A stretch of DNA of 64,000 nucleotides from Enterococcus phage VRE9_2: the sequence record PP680568.1. One strand, 5' to 3'. Both the position numbers and the translations under genes were made by a program. How positions within the stretch are numbered: the stretch's first letter is position 1; each line of letters starts with the position of its first letter. The notes under the pieces are model-generated. The model did no database searches. It worked only from the letters and a program-made list of their open reading frames with translations, and was not told where the DNA came from. This document shows, one piece after another, positions 35,811 to 44,733 of this stretch.

Positions 35811-35905
35811 TTGAGATATGGCGGAAAGGTAGACGCAAGGAGAGTCTCCCCATTGGAGACCCCTGTGCATGACGATGCAGTGTAGGTTCGAATCCTACTA
35901 TCTCA
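35811..35905 (+). tRNA. type II tRNA (Leu-like D-arm GGCGGAAAGGTAGACGC); anticodon not resolved
   Basis: perfect acceptor tgagata/tatctca, T-arm gtagg-TTCGAAT-cctac, variable hairpin tgcatgacgatgca; anticodon arm irregular. Confidence 0.45.
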
Positions 35906-36026
35906 GTTAAATAGGGACTAGAGCTAATTTATTTTAGCCAGTCCTTATCCCGAAAGGGAAAAATAATTTGACATTTTGAACATAATATGTTATAATTATT
36001 ATATAATAAAGATAAGAAATATAAAA

Positions 36027-36948: not shown

Positions 36949-37032
36949 GGAGAGTCCCTGTTGGCTAAAGGAAGAATGTTTTGAAAGCATTTGGCGGTAA
37001 CACGTCCAAGGGTTCGATTCCCTTACTCTCCT
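36949..37032 (+). tRNA. tRNA-Ser (UGA), type II (probable)
   Basis: acceptor ggagagt/actctcc, AC stem gaatgt/gcattt (6 bp incl. U-G), loop uuUGAaa, T-loop TTCGATT. Confidence 0.55.
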
Positions 37033-37089
37033 TAAAGAATCTTACAGCAAATATTAATACTTTTAATAATATTTGGGAAAAAATAAGGT

Positions 37090-37192
37090 CTAGGTTCGAC
37101 CCCTAGTATAAGTTTGGTACAACTTATATGGTGTAATGGTAGCACACAAAAGATAGATTCTTGTTTTTGGGGAAGGTACCTCCCCAGTATTT
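37090..37192 (+). ncRNA. degenerate tRNA-like element: T-arm+3' acceptor directly followed by a 5' acceptor+D-arm
   Basis: ctagg-TTCGACC-cctag tataagt (8 nt) acttata tg gtg-taatggtag-cac; tataagt/acttata are mutually complementary. Confidence 0.25.
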
Positions 37193-37276
37193 GGAGGATT
37201 ATGCAAATTGGTGAAGCAAGTGGTCTGTAAAACCATGACGTAAGATACATTGGGGGTTCGAATCCCTTGTCCTCCA
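37193..37276 (+). tRNA. tRNA-Tyr (GUA), type II
   Basis: acceptor ggaggat/gtcctcc, AC gtggt/accat, loop cuGUAaa. Confidence 0.7.
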
Positions 37277-37436
37277 TAGACTGCCTTTGTCAAGCAGTCG
37301 AATGTAACTAATTTTTTCATTAAATAAATATCAAATTGTGGCTGATTTCTACAGATTCAGAGCGGAGCATCCCCGCAGGTTGGGCATACTACAGTCCCCC
37401 ATGACTTTCATGGGTTGCACATAGTTAGGAGGTAGC

Positions 37437-37622
37437 ATGATGTATTTAAAATTCATTGGTTTAAACGGAAGTTTAGGTTTAGAGAAGGACAAGATATACT
37501 TTGTTACCTCTGAGATAACTGAATATTATATTATTTTGAGAATACAGGGTGTTCACGGTAAGACAGTAATGTGTCCATACGAAACATTAGAAAAAATGTT
37601 AGAAAATTGGCAGGTCTGTTAG
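37437..37622 (+). CDS. small hypothetical protein between tRNAs
   Basis: 61 aa, AGGAGG RBS. Confidence 0.35.
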   Translation: MMYLKFIGLNGSLGLEKDKIYFVTSEITEYYIILRIQGVHGKTVMCPYETLEKMLENWQVC

Positions 37623-37707
37623 TGTGTAAATAGCAAGGTCTGCATAAAACCTAAGAAACAGCACGCACAGAAGATTATGTATTGTCTCCCTTTTGGACAA
37701 ACATTTT

Positions 37708-37779
37708 GGCGCTATGGTCAAGCGGTTAAGACACTGGTCTTTCTAACCAGAATCCCGAGTTCGAATCTCGGTAGCGTCA
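37708..37779 (+). tRNA. tRNA, anticodon ambiguous (loop CUUUCUA: UUC read, U at 37)
   Basis: acceptor ggcgcta/tagcgtc, T-arm ccgag-TTCGAAT-ctcgg, AC stem ctggt/accag. Confidence 0.5.
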
Positions 37780-38001
37780 TAAAGAACGATACAGCAAACC
37801 TATTAAAATATTACAGAAGAGATTATGTAAGGAGCCGTAGATACCAACCGAAAAATCTACGAGTTCAATTATGGTTGGCGTTTGAGTTTTTTCTAGGTAC
37901 TTTCCTTGAGTTACGTTAACACTCGAAAAAGGTCTAAACCTCGTTCTTGATAAATAAACACAACTTTCCTTTCTTCCTGTCCATGTCACTGGACAGGTAA
38001 C

Positions 38002-38087
38002 GCGGGTATGGTGGAATTGGCAGACACATCAGACTTAAGATCTGACGAGAGGTATCTCTCATGCAGGTTCGACTCCTGCTATCCGTA
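38002..38087 (+). tRNA. tRNA-Leu (UAA), type II
   Basis: D gtg/cac with GAATTGGCAGA loop, AC tcaga/tctga, loop cuUAAga, variable hairpin gagag..ctctc. Confidence 0.7.
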
Positions 38088-38159
38088 TAAAGAACCTAAC
38101 AGCAATCACATTTAAAGGGATAATAGTATATCTAATAATATATAGGTTCTTGTTTTTTA

Positions 38160-38235
38160 TAGCTGGCGGCTGGTTGGATATCAGGGCAGGGTTCATAACC
38201 CAGCATAACTCAGTTCGATTCTGAGGCGTAGCAAT
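38160..38235 (+). ncRNA. degenerate tRNA-like element with two consecutive T-arm-like hairpins
   Basis: ggg-TTCATAA-ccc and ctcag-TTCGATT-ctgag followed by gcgtagc; no complementary 5' acceptor found. Confidence 0.25.
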
Positions 38236-38415
38236 ATTATTGAGGAAGAGCTAACCTGGCGAAAATATGCTCAGAGGAAAAAACCTGGCGAAAAATTAGC
38301 CCCTAGTCAAATTTCCACTTTGGCGGCTAGGTTGAGGCGCACAATAGGCATAAAGACACCTCGTAAAAGGGCAAGCGCAGTGTCCTTACCCAAATAAAAC
38401 AGCGGCAGCCTTTAC

Positions 38416-38487
38416 GCTGGTTTCGTATAATGGCTATTACAGTTGACTTGTAATCTTCAAATGGGAGTTCGATTCTCTCAACCAGCA
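38416..38487 (+). tRNA. tRNA, anticodon uncertain (UGA read in loop GUUGACU)
   Basis: perfect acceptor gctggtt/aaccagc, T-arm gggag-TTCGATT-ctctc; AC stem ttaca/tgtaa; short D-arm. Confidence 0.45.
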
Positions 38488-38585
38488 TTTATAAATGAAT
38501 GAGGCATTGGTTAGGTCTAAAATAGATATAGGGGTATTTAGTTATCTACGGATGCTAAATATTGTGTAATTCATTTTATTTTTTT

Positions 38586-38658
38586 CGATGATTCGTTCAA
38601 ATGGATAGGACGCTAGACTACGGATCTAGTAATAGAGGTTCAAGTCCTCTATCATCGG
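38586..38658 (+). tRNA. tRNA-Arg (ACG)
   Basis: acceptor cgatgat/atcatcg, AC ctaga/tctag, loop cuACGga. Confidence 0.7.
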
Positions 38659-38766
38659 TAGTATAAGGAATGATATTTCGCTTATACGAAACGTTAAGAG
38701 ATTCTCACACTGACGTCCCAATAGAGAAGGGTTTGAATAATCTTCCTTCTCTTGGTTTTTAATTTA

Positions 38767-38837
38767 TGCGCTGTTGGTGTAGTGGTATCACATCTGGCTC
38801 CAAACCAGAAAATGGGGGTTCGATTCCTTCACGGCGT
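38767..38837 (+). tRNA. tRNA-Trp (CCA)
   Basis: D gtg-TAGTGGTAT-cac, AC tctgg/ccaga, loop cuCCAaa. Confidence 0.65.
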
Positions 38838-38960
38838 GTTAGTATTTATCCTAATATTTATGATACCATGTAGAAGATATAAATAATAGGAAATAGGCTA
38901 GTCGTACAGAAAATGCCTATAGCAGCTTTAATAGCTGTCGCTTGATTTTTTAGCTATTAC

Positions 38961-39031
38961 ACCCCTATAATTTAATGGTAAAATACTGTGCTGATAACGC
39001 AGATTCCCTTGTTCGATTCAAGGTAGGGGTA
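38961..39031 (+). tRNA. tRNA-Ile (GAU)
   Basis: acceptor accccta/taggggt, D attt/aaat, AC ctgtg/cgcag, loop cuGAUaa. Confidence 0.7.
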
Positions 39032-39065
39032 TTTCTCTTTAATAAAAATAGAGGAAGGTAAAATA

Positions 39066-39557
39066 ATGTTTAGATGTGAAATTTGTGGCAAGGAATTTGA
39101 CAGTCCCCTTAAACTAGGAGGGCACAAATCCTCTCATTCAAGAGGAAAGAGAAAAGACTGCAAAAAAGAAATTAATTGTTTATATTGTAATAAAACTATG
39201 ACTGTCAATAAATCAGATAAAAAACAATATTGTTCTGTTGAATGTTTTAGAGCTCAAGTACAAGAAGATAAAAACAATCGTTTTGTTGTAATTAGAAGCG
39301 AGAAACATGGCAATCATGTTTTAGACATTACTGTCAAAGAACTAGAAGACTATCGGCAAAAACAATTAGTTTGTGAGATTTGCGGCAACAAAGAAATCAT
39401 CAAAAATGGAACTATAAAATTATCAGTCGATCACAACCATGAAACTTATAAATTTAGAGGTTTGCTATGCTATGCATGTAATGTTAAATTAGCTTGGTTA
39501 GAGAAAGAGTGGGATAGCATTAAATCTTACTTAGAAAGAGATAATTTTAAGTTTTAG
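39066..39557 (+). CDS. HNH endonuclease with N-terminal C2H2-like zinc finger
   Basis: CEICGKEF...HKSSH; VDHNHETYKFRGLLCYACN HNH motif. Confidence 0.7.
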   Translation: MFRCEICGKEFDSPLKLGGHKSSHSRGKRKDCKKEINCLYCNKTMTVNKSDKKQYCSVECFRAQVQEDKNNRFVVIRSEKHGNHVLDITVKELEDYRQKQLVCEICGNKEIIKNGTIKLSVDHNHETYKFRGLLCYACNVKLAWLEKEWDSIKSYLERDNFKF

Positions 39558-39651
39558 TATTAATTTTTTTTTATTTAGATAGGAGAGCTTGGATAATATG
39601 AAGAAAAGATTAAACAAACTATAAATATCTTATAAAGGAGGTATTTATAAT

Positions 39652-39903
39652 ATGAGTAGAAGTAGAAAAAAACAACCATATTCAAGATATGTTTGTATGA
39701 AGAATTCTTCTGTCAGAAAATCCAAGAAACAAATAAATCGTCTTTATCGAAGAAGAATGAAACAAGGTCTATATGATGAAGATGCCAAAATTCCAAGTTT
39801 GTATAAAAGACATGTAGACTGGGATTGGGATTATGAAATGATAAAAGGATATTTTCCTAAAGAAAAGTATCCTGATTTTTATGAAAAACTTATGAGAAAA
39901 TAA
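39652..39903 (+). CDS. small basic protein
   Basis: 83 aa, R/K-rich N-terminus; GGAGG RBS. Confidence 0.4.
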   Translation: MSRSRKKQPYSRYVCMKNSSVRKSKKQINRLYRRRMKQGLYDEDAKIPSLYKRHVDWDWDYEMIKGYFPKEKYPDFYEKLMRK

Positions 39904-39993
39904 AACTCCCTAAGATAGGGAGTTTTTTATTTGAAAAATTTAATTTAAAATGATATAATTAATTATAAGGACAAATAAAAAGGAGATTCAAAA

Positions 39994-40269
39994 ATGAATA
40001 AAAGAGAAAAAATATTTAATAAAGCTAAAAATATTACTGCCAAAACTGAGTTAATTAGGGGCATAGTGCAAAATCCAATGCTTCCCGAAGAAGTAGATTT
40101 AGATGAATTCAAAAAAGAAATTCAACGTATCAAACGAGAATTAACAGATTATCAAAATGAAGTTCTCTTATATTTTGCTTCTATTGGGGATGAAGAGAAA
40201 GAGAGAATTAAACAAGAACAATTAGAATTATCTGAATACTGGGAACAAAGGTGGGAAAATATACTATGA
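39994..40269 (+). CDS. hypothetical protein
   Basis: 91 aa; conserved promoter-leader upstream. Confidence 0.45.
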   Translation: MNKREKIFNKAKNITAKTELIRGIVQNPMLPEEVDLDEFKKEIQRIKRELTDYQNEVLLYFASIGDEEKERIKQEQLELSEYWEQRWENIL

Positions 40270-40640
40270 AAGTATTTGTAGATGATTTAAGGAAGTGTCC
40301 TGAAAGATATGAATTATTTAGGAGCGCAGAAGATTTTCTTGACTGGAGACAGAAAAATAATGATACAGAAATTGATATTTTGGCATTGGATCATGACCTA
40401 GGAGAAAACTGTTTGAATGGATATGAATTAGTTCAAGAATTAGTAGAATCTACTAGAATGGACAATATTAAAACTATTATTTTCCACACAGATAATTTAA
40501 TTGGTATGAAAAATATGTATTGTTATTTAAGTAATGCCCAAAAGCATGGGATTATTAGTGAAAATATTGTAATAAACCCAAATAAATATAATTGTTTAGA
40601 TGGTAAGTTTACTCAAAGTCTATATCGTGTTATTAAATAA
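40266..40640 (+). CDS. hypothetical protein
   Basis: start set to MKVFVDD after AAAGGTGGG RBS. Confidence 0.45.
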   Translation: MKVFVDDLRKCPERYELFRSAEDFLDWRQKNNDTEIDILALDHDLGENCLNGYELVQELVESTRMDNIKTIIFHTDNLIGMKNMYCYLSNAQKHGIISENIVINPNKYNCLDGKFTQSLYRVIK

Positions 40641-40708
40641 TTTGAAATTATTAATACAATATATTATAATTATATTATAAGATAAATAAAAGAAAGGAAG
40701 TTGTTTAA

Positions 40709-40942
40709 ATGTTGGAAGATGAATTATATGAACAAGGTTTTAATTCTGGATATATTAGTGCATTACAAAAAATTTCTCATAAACTTGCTATGAAGAAAGA
40801 GCCAATTCTTCGAGGTATTCTAGTGGGAGAACTATCTTCCGAAGAAGATTTAGCGATATTAAATACTATTAATGAGATTGAAAAAGTTGTTGAAGAAGAA
40901 AAAGAAAATCTTGAAGATGAAGAAAGTTGGTTAGATGAATGA
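40709..40942 (+). CDS. hypothetical acidic protein
   Basis: 77 aa, AAAGGAAG RBS. Confidence 0.4.
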   Translation: MLEDELYEQGFNSGYISALQKISHKLAMKKEPILRGILVGELSSEEDLAILNTINEIEKVVEEEKENLEDEESWLDE

Positions 40943-41113
40943 AAGTAGGAGACACTGTTCTTATCCTTAAAGATCTTGAAGATGTTGCTTGTAAAGGGTG
41001 TATTGGAGTAATTGAAGAGATAAATATAGTCTTGAATAAAGTGTATTTTGTTTCAAAAGAAGGCATTGAAATGAATTGTTCTTTTTTTGAAGATGAGTTG
41101 GAGGTAATCTAAT
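40940..41113 (+). CDS. small hypothetical protein (57 aa)
   Basis: coupled ATGA overlap with previous gene. Confidence 0.3.
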
Positions 41114-41378
41114 GGTATTTGTACTTTTATTATTAAATGGAGGAGTTATATTAGCAACGATTGGTTTAATTTTTCTTATTATTGCTACAATTTTATCTAT
41201 TAAGTCAAGTGTTAGAGAAAAATATATCAATATAATTATTAAATTTTATTATATTGCAGGTATACTTTATATTATTTCAGCCTTTTTCTCTTTCGAAATT
41301 TTAACTATATTTTTAAAAGTTTTAGTTGGATTAATATGCTTATATAATGTTTATCTAATCAAAAAAAATAAAAATTGA
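41112..41378 (+). CDS. hypothetical membrane protein
   Basis: 88 aa, three hydrophobic segments. Confidence 0.45.
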   Translation: MVFVLLLLNGGVILATIGLIFLIIATILSIKSSVREKYINIIIKFYYIAGILYIISAFFSFEILTIFLKVLVGLICLYNVYLIKKNKN

Positions 41379-41439
41379 CTTTTTTAGCATAACATGTTAT
41401 AATATTTATATAAGTTAGGAAGAAAAAACTTCCTAATAT

Positions 41440-41511
41440 GTCGCTATAGTGTAATGGATAGCACAAGAAACTTCTAATTTCTAAGTTTAGGTTCGAGTCC
41501 TAATAGCGATG
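41440..41511 (+). tRNA. tRNA-Arg (UCU)
   Basis: AC agaaa/tttct, loop cuUCUaa, T-loop TTCGAGT. Confidence 0.7.
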
Positions 41512-41516
41512 TTCAC

Positions 41517-41592
41517 AGTAGAATAGCTTATGTTTGGTTAAAGCACTCACCTTATAAGTGAGAGAGCGTGGGTTCGAACCCCACTTCTACTA
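41517..41592 (+). tRNA. tRNA with anticodon UAU (Ile-AUA reader?)
   Basis: acceptor agtagaa/ttctact, D gctt/aagc, AC ctcac/gtgag, loop cuUAUaa, T-loop TTCGAAC. Confidence 0.55.
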
Positions 41593-41626
41593 TAAAGAAT
41601 AAATAATGAAAGGAGAATCTCAAAAA

Positions 41627-41749
41627 ATGGAAGAAACATTAGATCGTGCAATAGAATTATTAGAAGAAGCAGAAGATTTATTGAATAATGTTCATGCCTA
41701 TGATAGCGACACATATAATTCTATTTGTGAATTTTTAGACTCTTTATAA
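41627..41749 (+). CDS. small acidic protein (40 aa)
   Basis: AAAGGAG RBS then ATG; followed by AGGACAAAATGTCTT hairpin. Confidence 0.3.
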   Translation: MEETLDRAIELLEEAEDLLNNVHAYDSDTYNSICEFLDSL

Positions 41750-41797
41750 TTAGGACAAAATGTCTTAAAGTATATGTAAATTATTTTAAAGACTTAT

Positions 41798-41854
41798 ACA
41801 GGTGCGAAATTAATTCAATAGGTAGAATTATTTAGATGGGTTCAAATCCCATAT
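41798..41854 (+). ncRNA. armless tRNA-like RNA (acceptor-like stem + D-like arm + T-arm, no anticodon arm); candidate Y-RNA tRNA-like module
   Basis: gcgaaat t aattc-AATAGGTA-gaatt atttag atggg-TTCAAAT-cccat atttcgc; 57 nt; 120 nt upstream of the Ro60-like gene on the same strand. Confidence 0.35.
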
Positions 41855-41974
41855 TTCGCTTAGGTAAAGAATCTTACAGCAAATATCATATGTTTAATAG
41901 GCTAATTCAAATATATTATATAAGATTCTTGAAGTTATTTTTAGCCGATTAAGAGATAAAGGAGATAAATAACT

Positions 41975-43471
41975 ATGACATTTTTAGATAATTTGAAAGA
42001 GGAAGCAACAGTTGGACGCACTTTCAATGGTGCAACTACTTATACTACTTCATTAAATGCTAATGTTGATCTTTTTGCATTAGGTGGGTCTATGCGATAC
42101 CAAAATGTTGGAGACAAGATTTCATTATTTGAAAAAGCATATAATGAAGACAGAGCTGTTGCATTGAGAAACCTAGTTTATATGCGAGATATTCGTAATG
42201 GTGGACTGGGTGAAAGAGCTATGTTCCACGCAGGAATTTGGTTCTTAGCTAAAAAGAAAGATGAAAAAGCACTTCATGTTATCATGAATAATGTAGCTGA
42301 TTTTAGTCGTTGGGATGATCTATTTTTCATTATGAAACAAGATGAAAAATTGTTTGATTATGGATTAATCATCATCAAAACTCAGCTTTTGGAAGATATG
42401 GACAATATGCGAAAAGGTAAAGAAATTTCTTTATTAGGGAAATGGCTACCTAATATTAATGCCAAAAGTGAAGAACGAAGAGCTTTTGGTCTTAGAGTTG
42501 CTAATGCTTTAGGATATACTAAACCTAGTGACTATAAGGTCTACCGAAAAATGTTAGTTAGATTAAGAGAAAAATTAGATTTAGTAGAAGTAAAATTAGC
42601 TGCTAAAGATTATGATTCAATTGATTTTTCTAAATTACCTTCTAGAGCAGGATTCAAGTATCGCTCAGCATTTTGGCGCCATATTTCAGATCGTTATTCT
42701 GAATTTTTAGAAGCTGTGAATAACGGCGAAGCTACAATGAATGGAAATTTGGTAATGCCAGATGAAATTATTGGAGCTTATGGATATCGGAGTTGTATTT
42801 CTTATGAAGAACAACCTGAATTAGAAGCTGCATGGAAATCTCTAAAAGATACTGTTAAGGGTTCTGACGAGAATGTAATTGTAGTTGCAGATACTTCTGC
42901 TTCTATGTGGGGTAAACCATGGGAAGTAGCAGAAGGTTTAGCAATTTATACTGCTGAACGCTTAGAAGGACCATTCAAGAATAATTTTATCACTTTCTCT
43001 AGACGCCCACAATTGGTAACTCTACCAAGTAATTGTTCCTTACGAGATAAAATGAACGAATATTCTCGTCATTCTATTATCGAAAACACAGATATTGAAG
43101 CAGTATTTAATCTTATTTTAGATACTGCTATCAAGAATAACACTCCAAAAGAAGAAGTTCCATCTAAAATTATCATTGTTTCAGATATGGAATTTGATCT
43201 TCAACGAGGAAATGACGTTACACATTTCAAACTTGCAAAATCTCGTTTTGAGGACGCTGGTTATGAAATGCCAGATGTAATCTTTTGGAATGTAGAAGCT
43301 AGATTAGGAAACTTGCCTGTTCGTTACAATGAACAGGGAGCAGCATTAGTATCTGGATTCAGTACAAATATTCTAACTTCTATTTTGAATGGAAAATTAG
43401 AAACTCCAGAATCTATGATGTTAGAAACGTTGTCCAATCCAGCATTTGACTTCATTGATGAAGCTATCTAA
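41975..43471 (+). CDS. rsr: Ro60/Rsr-like protein (TROVE domain + C-terminal vWA domain)
   Basis: N-terminus TFNGATTYTTS...LFALGGSMRY TROVE-like; vWA with MIDAS VVADTSASMWGKPW...IIVSDMEFD; 498 aa. Confidence 0.65.
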   Translation: MTFLDNLKEEATVGRTFNGATTYTTSLNANVDLFALGGSMRYQNVGDKISLFEKAYNEDRAVALRNLVYMRDIRNGGLGERAMFHAGIWFLAKKKDEKALHVIMNNVADFSRWDDLFFIMKQDEKLFDYGLIIIKTQLLEDMDNMRKGKEISLLGKWLPNINAKSEERRAFGLRVANALGYTKPSDYKVYRKMLVRLREKLDLVEVKLAAKDYDSIDFSKLPSRAGFKYRSAFWRHISDRYSEFLEAVNNGEATMNGNLVMPDEIIGAYGYRSCISYEEQPELEAAWKSLKDTVKGSDENVIVVADTSASMWGKPWEVAEGLAIYTAERLEGPFKNNFITFSRRPQLVTLPSNCSLRDKMNEYSRHSIIENTDIEAVFNLILDTAIKNNTPKEEVPSKIIIVSDMEFDLQRGNDVTHFKLAKSRFEDAGYEMPDVIFWNVEARLGNLPVRYNEQGAALVSGFSTNILTSILNGKLETPESMMLETLSNPAFDFIDEAI

Positions 43472-43505: not shown

Positions 43506-43579
43506 ACGCTTCTTTAGCTCAGTAGGTAGTAGCGCCAGTCTGAAGAACTGGAGGTCCCTGGTTCGACTCCAGGAGGAAG
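43506..43579 (+). tRNA. tRNA-Phe (GAA)
   Basis: AC ccagt/actgg, loop cuGAAga, T-loop TTCGACT. Confidence 0.7.
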
Positions 43580-43697
43580 CATTAATCCAGCCCAGGAAAG
43601 TGCCAATATTATATTCGCTCTCTTGGGCTTTTCATATTTGAAAAAATATATTAATCATGTTATAATTAATTATAAAGTTAATTAAGAATTTTAAAAG

Positions 43698-43799: not shown

Positions 43800-44096
43800 A
43801 TGGACAAAGAAAAAATTAAAGAATCTTGGAACTATTGTTTAGCCCAAAGTATTGGAGTTAGAAAATTAGCTTCTAAAAATGAAGCTATTAGAAAAGATAG
43901 TTTAGAAAAAAACATTGCTACTAAAACTGCCTTAGAAGTTTTAAAAGAGCAATTAAATGTTTTAATTGAGATGCTGGAGAAAATTGATTTAGAAGAAGAA
44001 CTTCTCTTAACTTGTCAAGAGAAAGCTGCGGTAGAGTATCTTATTGAAGTATATGAAAATCTTATTATTGTGAAAGAGGGGGAGCAACTTGACTAA
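43800..44096 (+). CDS. hypothetical protein
   Basis: 98-aa ORF. Confidence 0.45.
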   Translation: MDKEKIKESWNYCLAQSIGVRKLASKNEAIRKDSLEKNIATKTALEVLKEQLNVLIEMLEKIDLEEELLLTCQEKAAVEYLIEVYENLIIVKEGEQLD

Positions 44097-44733
44097 ATTT
44101 ATTACAAGTGATTGGCATTTCTTTCATAATAATGCTTGTGGTCCAGAAGGATTCATTTCTACTAGAAAAAAGTTTTCCTCTGTAGAAGAGATGAACGATA
44201 ATATTATTAAAACTATTAATCAAAAGGTTGGTAGAGATGATACTATTATTCATTTAGGAGATATTGGTTTTGGGAAACCTAAAAAATTGTTTGAAACATT
44301 AGAAAAAATCAATGGACAAATTATTTTAATTAAGGGAAATCATGATAGTTCAAAATTATTTAAGTATATTGTAAATAATAATTATCATTATCCATATAGT
44401 AATCCTAAAAAACGTAAACAATCTCCTGACCGAGTTAAATTTTTAGTTGAAGAAGTTGGTTTAAGGGAAAAAATGAATGGTAAGGTTTACTATTTAACTC
44501 ATTACCCATTTCAGTTAGGAGAACAACGTAAAAATATGCGTTCAATTTGTGGACATATTCATGAGCAGATTGCTCCTGAGGCTAATATGATTAACGTAGG
44601 TATTGATTCTCCTGAAATTGCTTCAAAGATTTCTAATTTTGGAGAACCTCTTCTTCTGGAAGATGCAATAGAATTAGTTGATAAAAAATGGGAAAAATGG
44701 TATAATGATACTATAAGAATTTTGGGAAGTTAA
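44089..44733 (+). CDS. calcineurin-like metallophosphoesterase
   Basis: SDWHFFH, GDIGFG, GNHDSS, THYPF, GHIHEQ motifs. Confidence 0.72.
   Translation: MTKFITSDWHFFHNNACGPEGFISTRKKFSSVEEMNDNIIKTINQKVGRDDTIIHLGDIGFGKPKKLFETLEKINGQIILIKGNHDSSKLFKYIVNNNYHYPYSNPKKRKQSPDRVKFLVEEVGLREKMNGKVYYLTHYPFQLGEQRKNMRSICGHIHEQIAPEANMINVGIDSPEIASKISNFGEPLLLEDAIELVDKKWEKWYNDTIRILGS

Follow-up and report, generated by a model that had tools for sequence, protein, structure and literature searches.

A DUF2828 protein with a predicted Ro60 fold and candidate Y-like RNAs in the tRNA gene cluster of Enterococcus phage VRE9_2

Ro60 and the Y RNAs form a conserved, poorly understood RNA-surveillance system, and Ro60 is a major human autoantigen. 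This report concerns a locus of Enterococcus phage VRE9_2 (record PP680568.1), of which a stretch of 64,000 nucleotides (nt), here called the window, was analysed. In this locus, the gene for a 498-amino-acid (aa) protein of family DUF2828 (positions 41975-43471) is preceded by a 57-nt tRNA-like element that lacks an anticodon arm (41804-41860; the armless element) and is accompanied by small RNAs carrying a module to which we give the name Y-arm, a helix with the motif ACAGCAA. These and all other window features given below with coordinates lie on the + strand. An earlier note on this DNA had proposed that the protein and the armless element are a phage pair of Rsr and Y RNA. That proposal is partly supported: the call of a Ro60-like protein with Y-like RNAs was right, and such RNAs occur both in the locus and beside homologues of the gene, but they are neighbours of the element that had been flagged. 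The locus is probably a phage version of the Ro60/Y RNA system in which a divergent family of proteins is combined with a distinct family of RNAs.

Both bacteria and phages are known to encode Ro60 homologues next to Y-like RNAs, and TROVE annotation led to all of these (PMC4201824). In Salmonella, the rsr-yrlBA-rtcBA operon offers a comparable RNA-repair context (PMC7790460), and, in a survey of jumbo phages, proteins of the ROT/TROVE type were mentioned in RNA-repair settings together with a tRNA-like partner (PMC7824862). For phiRo60 of Thermus phage phiLo, with its RNAs Yrl1 and Yrl2, there is biochemical and structural evidence, including binding of the host PNPase (PMC12135203). Yrn1 of Deinococcus radiodurans carries T- and D-like arms in tRNA orientation relative to the RNA ends (PMC4201824).

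The phage locus resembles the bacterial Rsr and YrlA/YrlB systems (PMC4201824; RF02553) in having a vWA ring protein adjoined by several small RNAs on the same strand, in having RNA-repair genes nearby, and in an RNA design, shared by one RNA of the window (RNA a) and by modules of Schiekvirus phages, that places a T arm, a capped acceptor and a D arm inside a stem of the 5' and 3' ends. It differs in that the DUF2828 protein has no Pfam TROVE match, that the RNAs in related loci score 27 to 50 bits against the Rfam YrlA model (gathering score, 69), all of it from the tRNA-like part, that the conserved protein-side element is the helix with ACAGCAA, that copies are more numerous (typically 4 to 9 per locus), and that most units in other DUF2828 phages have true tRNA topology with the anticodon arm kept. 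The known phage homologues of Ro60, in mycobacteriophages, CcrColossus, Bacillus phage G and phiLo, likewise have Y-like RNA genes immediately upstream, but they are TROVE-annotated and their RNAs are recognised by a stem-bulge-stem with a CGAA motif, whereas the present locus combines DUF2828, ACAGCAA and RNAs interleaved with a tRNA gene cluster. The tRNA orientation of the arms in Yrn1 is shared by the armless element and by the tRNA-topology units of other phages. The ends of Yrn1, however, run into its Rsr-binding helix, an extension that the armless element lacks, and the protein-side helix of the tRNA-topology units is an internal capped arm.

What is new here is a Ro60-like DUF2828 protein beside a previously undescribed family of small structured RNAs, in a system that extends well beyond Enterococcus phage VRE9_2. 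The evidence points to a large second branch of Ro60, labelled only DUF2828, with the same fold and with its own RNA family outside Rfam. Within that family, the helix with ACAGCAA is a sharply defined candidate protein-binding site, and the RNAs are physically linked to tRNA genes and to RNA-repair enzymes. The role of the tRNA-like half of Y RNAs becomes testable in a tractable lytic Enterococcus phage for which a natural deletion mutant, VRE9_4, exists. The RNAs also account for several unannotated intergenic stretches and for spurious small coding sequence (CDS) calls in Enterococcus phage genomes.

Family and fold of the DUF2828 protein

The 498-aa open reading frame (ORF) contains the motifs TFNGATTYTTS, LFALGGSMRY, DTSASM and SDMEFD, just as had been reported. 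Pfam assigns the protein to DUF2828 (5.6e-27) and DUF7788 (4.8e-43), with a weak match to VWA_2, and PHROGs places it in phrog_850, "RNA-binding protein." Sequence comparison gives no sign of Ro60. Pfam TROVE (PF05731) and vWA_Ro60 (PF25045) do not match the protein, and no Ro60 chain was found among PDB sequences, whether they were searched by phmmer with the VRE9_2 protein alone or with a profile made from 45 homologues. Alignment of the family profile to human Ro60 by hhalign covered part of the vWA domain only, at 11% probability; the Ro60 sequence used was checked by Pfam (TROVE, 2.9e-50). The earlier statement that the N terminus fits the TROVE consensus is therefore not borne out, since none of these methods finds similarity at the TROVE level.

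Structure settles what the sequence methods miss. An AlphaFold2 model built from the alignment of 45 sequences has a mean predicted local distance difference test score of 92 and a predicted template modelling (TM) score of 0.90. When this model was compared with the PDB by Foldseek, the top five matches were all Ro60 entries, aligned over about 550 columns with E values of 6.6e-8 to 7.9e-7 and TM scores of 0.42 to 0.60, and the matches beyond these five were to vWA domains only. Many vWA structures match residues ~300 to 480, and the MIDAS residues D306-x-S308-x-S310, T372 and D404 are invariant in the 45 homologues. Among the features that define membership in Ro60/Rsr, the HEAT-repeat ring of the TROVE module is present as a fold and the C-terminal vWA domain with its MIDAS is present, and the TROVE signature is absent; the Ro60/Rsr architecture claimed for the protein thus holds at the level of fold and fails at that of sequence. 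Judged from the model, the protein almost certainly has the Ro60 fold, with an N-terminal helical-repeat ring and a C-terminal vWA/MIDAS domain, a reading that sequence methods alone would wrongly have refuted.

The family is large, with 1,839 matches in the first protein search and DUF2828 members in 570 of the 600 candidate stretches from IMG/VR. The homologue in the Schiekvirus EfV12-phi1 is ~50% identical to the VRE9_2 protein. Searches of the literature on DUF2828 found no link to Ro60 or to any RNA, and only unrelated plant and tardigrade papers surfaced.

Y-arm RNAs in the window and in related phages

The association between gene and RNA was assessed in 80 phage loci from IMG/VR whose DUF2828 proteins are 36 to 49% identical to the query. 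In these loci, the gene strand carries 387 copies of ACAGCAA and the opposite strand 27, with at least one copy in 76 of the 80 and at least two in 69. The copies are concentrated in the 500 nt just 5' of the gene (144 copies, as opposed to only 14 in the three bins of the gene itself), and the last copy precedes the gene start by a median of 121 nt. The motif is invariably preceded directly by the end of a helix, and the outer end of that helix reads (U)AAG...CUUG or ...CUAG. DUF2828 is the sole protein family common to all 80 loci; the next commonest, found in 11, is an ATP-dependent RNA ligase (PF09414) encoded just 3' of the DUF2828 gene (for example, at L028 3904-5166; 1.2e-13). When ten of the loci were searched with Rfam, nine yielded sub-threshold YrlA matches, eleven in all at 32 to 50 bits, together with tRNA matches.

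In each module, the helix leads on its inner side to an unpaired ACAGCAA that lies opposite an A-rich strand, and its outer closure is UAAG...CUUG, or AAGAA...UUCUUG in Enterococcus phages. Each locus related to the window holds four to five such modules. In EfV12-phi1, the 830-nt gap 5' of the homologous gene has two Rfam YrlA matches (45.2 and 34.3 bits) and comprises four tandem modules of the form UAAAGAA-NNNN-ACAGCAA ... NNNN-UUCUUG. The four N positions covary: among 18 distinct modules of the Enterococcus group, 91.4% of cells are paired, compared with 76.6% in shuffles, and the covariation score of 0.356 (0.096 in shuffles) was reached by 0 of 500 shuffles. Sliding the register lowers the paired cells to 44 to 54%. 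At pair 10-37, for instance, the modules have CG in 8 cases, UA in 7 and GC in 3. A search for helices of at least 7 base pairs (bp) within 230 nt had a background of 43% at random anchors and is not used as evidence.

The leaders of the Schiekvirus-like phages (L003 1870-2520; L002, L004 and L005) are structured in their own right. Each module there is preceded by a conserved leader of ~45 nt and by no tRNA; the leader consists of GGUUUUG-hairpin-CAUAG, followed by a 5-bp stem around a small inner hairpin, and this stem shows compensatory changes (GUUCC/GGAAC, GCUUC/GAAGC and GCUCU/AGAGC).

The window contains four matches to the Y-arm pattern, where 0.34 would be expected by chance. RNA a (37035-37163), identified by descriptor scans and folding, has a closing helix of AAGAAUCU/AGAUUCUU with ACAGCAA, begins 3 nt 3' of tRNA-Ser and is followed by a U-run. 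It has YrlA topology. Its closing helix encloses a permuted tRNA-like domain (37090-37145) composed of a T arm (CUAGG-UUCGACC-CCUAG), a capped acceptor (UAUAAGUU-UGGUAC-AACUUAUA) and a D arm (GUG-UAAUGGUAG-CAC), which vindicates the suggestion that 37090-37192 could be a further Y-like RNA. A 176-nt scan (37025-37200) with Rfam YrlA gave no match to RNA a, and a split-anticodon-stem test found no canonical anticodon arm in it. RNA b (37782-37949) begins 2 nt 3' of tRNA-Glu and has the helix AAGAACGA/UCGUUCUU with ACAGCAA; no tRNA-like domain is recognisable in its 150-nt interior. The remaining two are bare hairpins. Hairpin c (38090-38152; helix AAGAACCUA/UAGGUUCUU with ACAGCAA) begins 3 nt 3' of tRNA-Leu(UAA) and is followed by a U-run. 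Hairpin d (41866-41931), recognised by pattern match and fold, forms part of the leader of the DUF2828 gene, following the armless element and preceding the start codon; its helix pairs AAGAAUCUUA (41867-41876) with UAAGAUUCUU (41921-41930), ACAGCAA occupies 41877-41883, 99 nt from the gene start, and the closing G is at 41931. Scans for YrlA (RF02553) within the window, at E values up to 10 and over 10 kb around the locus, 291 nt and 176 nt, gave no match; the Y-arm copies of Enterococcus phages are the more derived ones.

Two further sequences lie close to these RNAs. Directly 3' of tRNA-Ile(UAU), positions 41593-41604 read UAAAGAAUAAAU, the first 7 nt of the 5' strand of a Y-arm, with no ACAGCAA and no partner strand; this is possibly the vestige of a lost module. 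Directly 3' of hairpin c lies a tRNA-Met(CAU)-like sequence (38157-38232) that is degenerate, its acceptor and D stems being poor; the earlier note had listed it, at 38160-38235, as another possible Y-like RNA, which it is not.

Across the DUF2828 loci, the Y-arm is found in three connectivities: as a bare hairpin; as the closing stem around a permuted tRNA-like body, which is the topology of YrlA; and, capped, as an insertion in the anticodon stem of an RNA that is shaped like a tRNA and whose acceptor ends are ordinary. The third form was evident from Rfam, whose tRNA model matches stretches of 113 to 126 nt in many loci, with a Y-arm capped by a small loop between the D and T arms. With a strict descriptor, under which a unit must have D and T arms, a perfect 7-bp acceptor and an internal ACAGCNA, 98 such units were detected in 47 of the 80 loci; every one is on the gene strand, and neither the opposite strand nor shuffled sequences gave any. 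Units span L006-L083, examples being L021 1369-1485 and L009 1992-2112. Removal of the arm (39 to 54 nt) restores a perfect 5-bp anticodon stem and 7-nt loop, with U33, a purine at position 37 and the canonical distance from the T arm, in 41 of the 79 distinct units, whereas shuffled units did so in a mean of 0.74 and a maximum of 4 cases. Of the 5' strand of the anticodon stem, 2 nt precede the arm in 22 units and 3 nt in 10, which puts the arm at 28/29 or 29/30. GUU is the commonest reconstituted anticodon (14 units), and GGU, UGU, UUU and UCU are also seen; some of the reconstituted "tRNAs" are unnatural, with a GCU or AUG anticodon in a body with a short variable arm. The anticodon stem is restored likewise in 6 of 15 permuted units; 3 of the 15 probably represent the joints between members of a tandem array. 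ARAGORN, run after computational removal of the arm, did not discriminate, calling all 79 real units and 76 to 79 shuffled ones, and the explicit split-anticodon-stem test took its place.

The helix, the internal loop of ACAGCAA and A-rich strand, and the tRNA body are the same in both tRNA-containing forms; only the opening of the chain differs, lying at the Y-arm in the YrlA-like form and at the acceptor in the tRNA-like form. The recurrence of one architecture in permuted connectivities is strong evidence for a conserved three-dimensional design.

By analogy with Ro60, these findings make the Y-arm RNAs quite probable partners of the protein. A reverse scan of viral contigs for TAAAGAANNNNACAGCAA was saturated by chance single matches, with the gene in 0 of 120 stretches. 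A scan with a longer pattern returned 30 stretches, and the fully complementary helices among them all came from DUF2828 contigs. Two large contigs, of 185 kb (L196/L212) and 194 kb (L214/L222), have genuine Y-arm modules next to tRNAs and no DUF2828 homologue in the DNA that was fetched; the gene may lie outside the fetched part of each contig, or the module may serve a different protein.

The armless element and competing explanations

The tRNA-like element noticed in the earlier note is real and stands 5' of the gene on the same strand, although its coordinates had been given as 41798-41854, 6 nt too far to the left, and its distance from the start codon is 114 nt rather than 120. It consists of a 7-bp acceptor (GCGAAAT/ATTTCGC), U8-A9, a D arm (AAUUC-AAUAGGUA-GAAUU), a 6-nt linker, a T arm (AUGGG-UUCAAAU-CCCAU) and a discriminator U, with no encoded CCA. 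In a 291-nt scan with lax filters, the Rfam tRNA model (RF00005; gathering score, 29) matches it end to end, from model position 1 to 71, at 42.1 bits (E = 7e-8), with the 17 positions of the anticodon arm reduced to 2 nt, so that decoding is impossible. All of the elbow nucleotides (U8, A14, G18-G19, G53-C61 and U54-U55-C56-R57-A58) can be read from it, indicating a clean "top half plus D arm" and not a decayed sequence. As far as sequence can tell, what RNase P, RNase Z and the CCA-adding enzyme use in the elbow and acceptor of a tRNA is present in it. ARAGORN did not call it at default or relaxed settings, and a 10-kb Rfam scan at E values up to 10 missed both the element, which was lost to speed filters, and all of the Y-arm RNAs. 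The element is 99.3 to 100% identical in four related phages (H1, EF1, EF5 and VRE9_3). No tRNA of the window is a close parent from which it could have been copied.

Genuine tRNAs hold the position directly 5' of other Y-arms. Of the 260 gene-strand tRNAs in all loci scanned, window included, 18 have ACAGCAA 10 to 19 nt past their 3' ends, compared with 2 to 4 in neighbouring bins; these 18 come from at least 10 unrelated loci and include three window tRNAs, those that precede RNAs a to c by 1 to 3 nt. The armless element, with ACAGCAA 17 nt past its 3' end, occupies the same slot, which leads to the reading that it is a processing handle. Precursors of tRNAs that lack an encoded CCA and have U/A-rich trailers are RNase Z substrates in Bacillus subtilis. 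The armless element and all 17 of the window tRNA genes are of this kind, so that the element is most likely cut by RNase P and RNase Z.

Transcription probably starts at a single strong sigma-70-type promoter-like site (41375-41403; TTGACT, a 17-nt spacer, TATAAT and an upstream TG, agreeing with the consensus at 11 of 12 positions), and the transcript would comprise tRNA-Arg(UCU) and tRNA-Ile(UAU) (41439-41592; called by ARAGORN and Rfam, neither encoding CCA), a 40-aa ORF (41627-41749) for which a family search gave no match, the armless element, hairpin d, the DUF2828 gene and tRNA-Phe(GAA) (43508-43581, 37 nt 3' of the stop codon). From 41375 to the gene end, a terminator scan gave no candidate site. 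On this transcript, the Ro60-like protein would bind the Y-arm as Ro60 binds the conserved stem of Y RNAs, and the tRNA-like parts would engage tRNA-processing or tRNA-targeting factors. RNase P would cut at 41804 and RNase Z after 41860, excising the armless element like a tRNA, parting the message of the 40-aa ORF from the downstream RNA and creating the 5' end of an mRNA composed of hairpin d and the DUF2828 gene. A 5'-terminal hairpin d that is also a binding site for the protein could make the message more stable or allow the protein to control its own production by feedback. Signals of this kind for RNase P and RNase Z are known from MALAT1-mascRNA, from the tRNA-miRNA transcripts of murine gammaherpesvirus 68 and from the tRNA punctuation of mitochondrial transcripts. 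Common to these and the phage locus is a tRNA or tRNA-like body directly 5' of an RNA whose 5' end would be made by tRNA 3' processing; in the phage, however, cleavage is a prediction, and what follows the tRNA-like body is a Y-arm hairpin joined to an mRNA.

Phage VRE9_4 is a natural deletion mutant of the region. Comparison of its locus (L084 2420-2570) with window positions 37035-41890 shows that ~4.8 kb was lost when modules a and d recombined through their identical 5' strands; the armless element, RNAs a to c, nine tRNA genes and several ORFs went with it. Hairpin d and the DUF2828 gene are kept, and tRNA-Ser is fused directly to hairpin d, so that the order of tRNA, Y-arm hairpin and gene persists. 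Analogues of the armless element occur in two other phages. In L009, whose protein is 40% identical, an element at 2120-2183 (Rfam tRNA, 43.9 bits), with 6 nt in place of the anticodon arm, lies 3' of a full Y-arm-bearing unit and 5' of three bare Y-arm hairpins, which the gene follows. The element in L060 (1150-1202, +; 53 nt) has a type-II-style D loop (AAGUGGUUGAA) and encodes a GCCA 3' end, unlike that of the window. We infer that the armless element is a tRNA body, with its acceptor/T-arm helix and D/T elbow, after the loss of the anticodon arm and of its Y-arm.

Several points weigh against a phage Ro60/Y RNA system with the armless element as its processing handle. The protein has no match to the Pfam models of TROVE or vWA_Ro60, the predicted link between protein and RNA derives from gene-RNA co-occurrence and from the analogy with Ro60, and the Y-arm is unlike the known Ro60-binding stems in sequence. 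Several of the 80 loci are near-duplicates, making the effective sample smaller than 80. The Schiekvirus and L004 modules follow a structured leader rather than tRNAs, so that a tRNA 5' of the Y-arm is common but not obligatory, and the spacer between armless element and Y-arm is 6 nt, as opposed to 1 to 3 nt after genuine tRNAs. Independent examples of armless elements number only three (the window clade, L009 and L060), taken from strict hits, because the relaxed descriptor has a background of ~5 hits per set. VRE9_4 grows without the armless element and modules a to c, so none of these is essential in culture. With these points counted, the processing-handle reading of the armless element has, on what can be read from the DNA, a little less than an even chance of being right.

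The remaining explanations differ in what they make of the element and of the hairpins beside it. That the armless element itself is a YrlA-type Y RNA bound by the Ro60-like protein, as originally suggested, is improbable. It does adjoin the gene on the same strand and has precisely the three tRNA-like parts of YrlA (acceptor, D arm and T arm), and YrlA-like RNAs do stand 5' of the homologous gene in related phages; both it and RNA a, 4.8 kb upstream, lie on the strand of the Ro60-like gene within a few kb, as in a YrlA-style arrangement. Yet the YrlA scan around it that the earlier note had proposed gave no match, even over 291 nt with lax filters, the tRNA model matching instead. Its topology is opposite to that of YrlA, with open acceptor ends, the D arm before the T arm and no enclosing or closing stem. 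An extension of the acceptor by its flanks into a long Ro-binding helix was ruled out, the flanks being unpaired by sequence and by fold. The helix with ACAGCAA is missing from the element and is found in the next hairpin (41866-41931); lacking both Y-arm and anticodon arm, the element falls outside the gene-associated RNA family, and VRE9_4 has lost it and kept the gene and hairpin d. Slightly less improbable is a bipartite RNA of ~130 nt in which the armless body and hairpin d stay joined, tethered through the acceptor 3' end, as a third way of connecting tRNA-like body and Y-arm modules. In most relatives, the two parts do form one RNA, in two permuted connectivities; here they are only 6 nt apart, and the same tandem order is seen again in L009. 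The perfect acceptor, the discriminator and the CCA-less, U-rich trailer nevertheless predict an RNase Z cut between the two parts, genuine tRNAs that must be released hold the same position 5' of other Y-arms, and VRE9_4 joins hairpin d to tRNA-Ser instead.

The armless element could also be a non-functional relic, left when a single deletion took positions 27-43 from a tRNA gene or from a tRNA-like gene with a Y-arm, and this is somewhat more plausible than either of the foregoing, though still unlikely. A single deletion of 27-43 in a unit of the L009 or L014 type yields exactly the armless structure, the element is dispensable in VRE9_4 and is not a recent copy of any window tRNA, and the known copies are at least 99.3% identical, so that purifying selection is not measurable. 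Set against this are the perfection of every stem, the intactness of every elbow nucleotide and the independent analogues with equally clean tRNA scores in unrelated phages; moreover, a relic of this structure would still be a substrate of RNase P and RNase Z and would act on the transcript. A similarly low probability attaches to a different view of the partner RNAs, as complete tRNA cloverleaves with a 40- to 55-nt arm at 28/29 or 29/30, in normal or permuted order, taking its two variants together. In one, the arm would be intron-like and the permuted genes would be genuine permuted tRNA genes whose products are cleaved and ligated during maturation, the Ro60-like ring serving as cofactor; RNA ligase genes adjoin the DUF2828 gene in 11 of the 80 loci. 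Permuted tRNA genes are known in Cyanidioschyzon merolae and non-canonical tRNA introns in archaea; like these, the phage units present a cloverleaf in two circularly permuted orders, interrupted at a fixed non-canonical site, but no bulge-helix-bulge motif or splicing endonuclease gene was seen, and excision is hypothetical. In the other, the protein would grip the arm as a handle, either to keep bait tRNAs in place against host anticodon nucleases or tRNA-modifying toxins or to offer damaged tRNAs for repair. Under either variant, the armless element of the window would be the "top half" left after removal of the anticodon arm and handle. It is very improbable, finally, that the ACAGCAA hairpins are unrelated to the protein and are terminators, repetitive extragenic palindrome-like repeats or small mobile palindromes of tRNA regions. 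U-runs follow modules a and c, the repeats mediate recombination in VRE9_4, and the two large contigs have modules without a DUF2828 gene in the stretch fetched. A strand bias of 387 to 27, with its peak just 5' of one gene family whose proteins are 36 to 49% identical, speaks for a link to the protein, as do the covariation of the helix between fixed flanks and the fixed place of the module, at 28/29 or 29/30, inside tRNA-shaped RNAs; the AU-rich stems and 40- to 150-nt loops are unlike those of intrinsic terminators, and the hairpins drew no call in the terminator scan.

Related phages and the surrounding tRNA cluster

The region of the window is ~95% identical to that of Enterococcus phages VRE9_3, H1, EF1 and EF5, myoviruses of 134 to 142 kb, and the DUF2828 locus sits within the tRNA gene cluster of phages of this type. 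ARAGORN called 17 tRNAs in the window, and Rfam added one. In the public records inspected, no RNA other than tRNA is annotated in this region, and in some of them, spurious small CDSs overlap elements described here.

Inside the cluster, 1.3 kb 5' of the Ro60-like gene, lies a gene for a 129-aa cyclic-phosphate processing receiver, cREC_REC (40251-40640; Pfam PF20274, 4.5e-22), a family linked to RNA-end processing. A calcineurin-like metallophosphoesterase is encoded at 44089-44733 (Metallophos, 1.5e-7; Metallophos_2, 7.3e-8), and a PTH2 gene is also present, further upstream of the Ro60-like gene. A neighbourhood of these three genes fits an RNA-repair theme.

A match to the Rfam tRNA model at 35812-35906 (38.5 bits) was missed by ARAGORN at default settings; at relaxed settings, the program reads a tRNA-Ser(GGA) whose anticodon loop is enlarged by an insertion of 10 nt. 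Also inside the tRNA cluster, 39066-39557 encodes a 163-aa protein with a C2H2 zinc finger and an endonuclease VII domain (3.9e-11), possibly a homing-type nuclease, whose gene is seemingly absent from the corresponding place in VRE9_3. In the tRNA cluster of EfV12-phi1, a "tRNA-Pseudo-ATG" is annotated.

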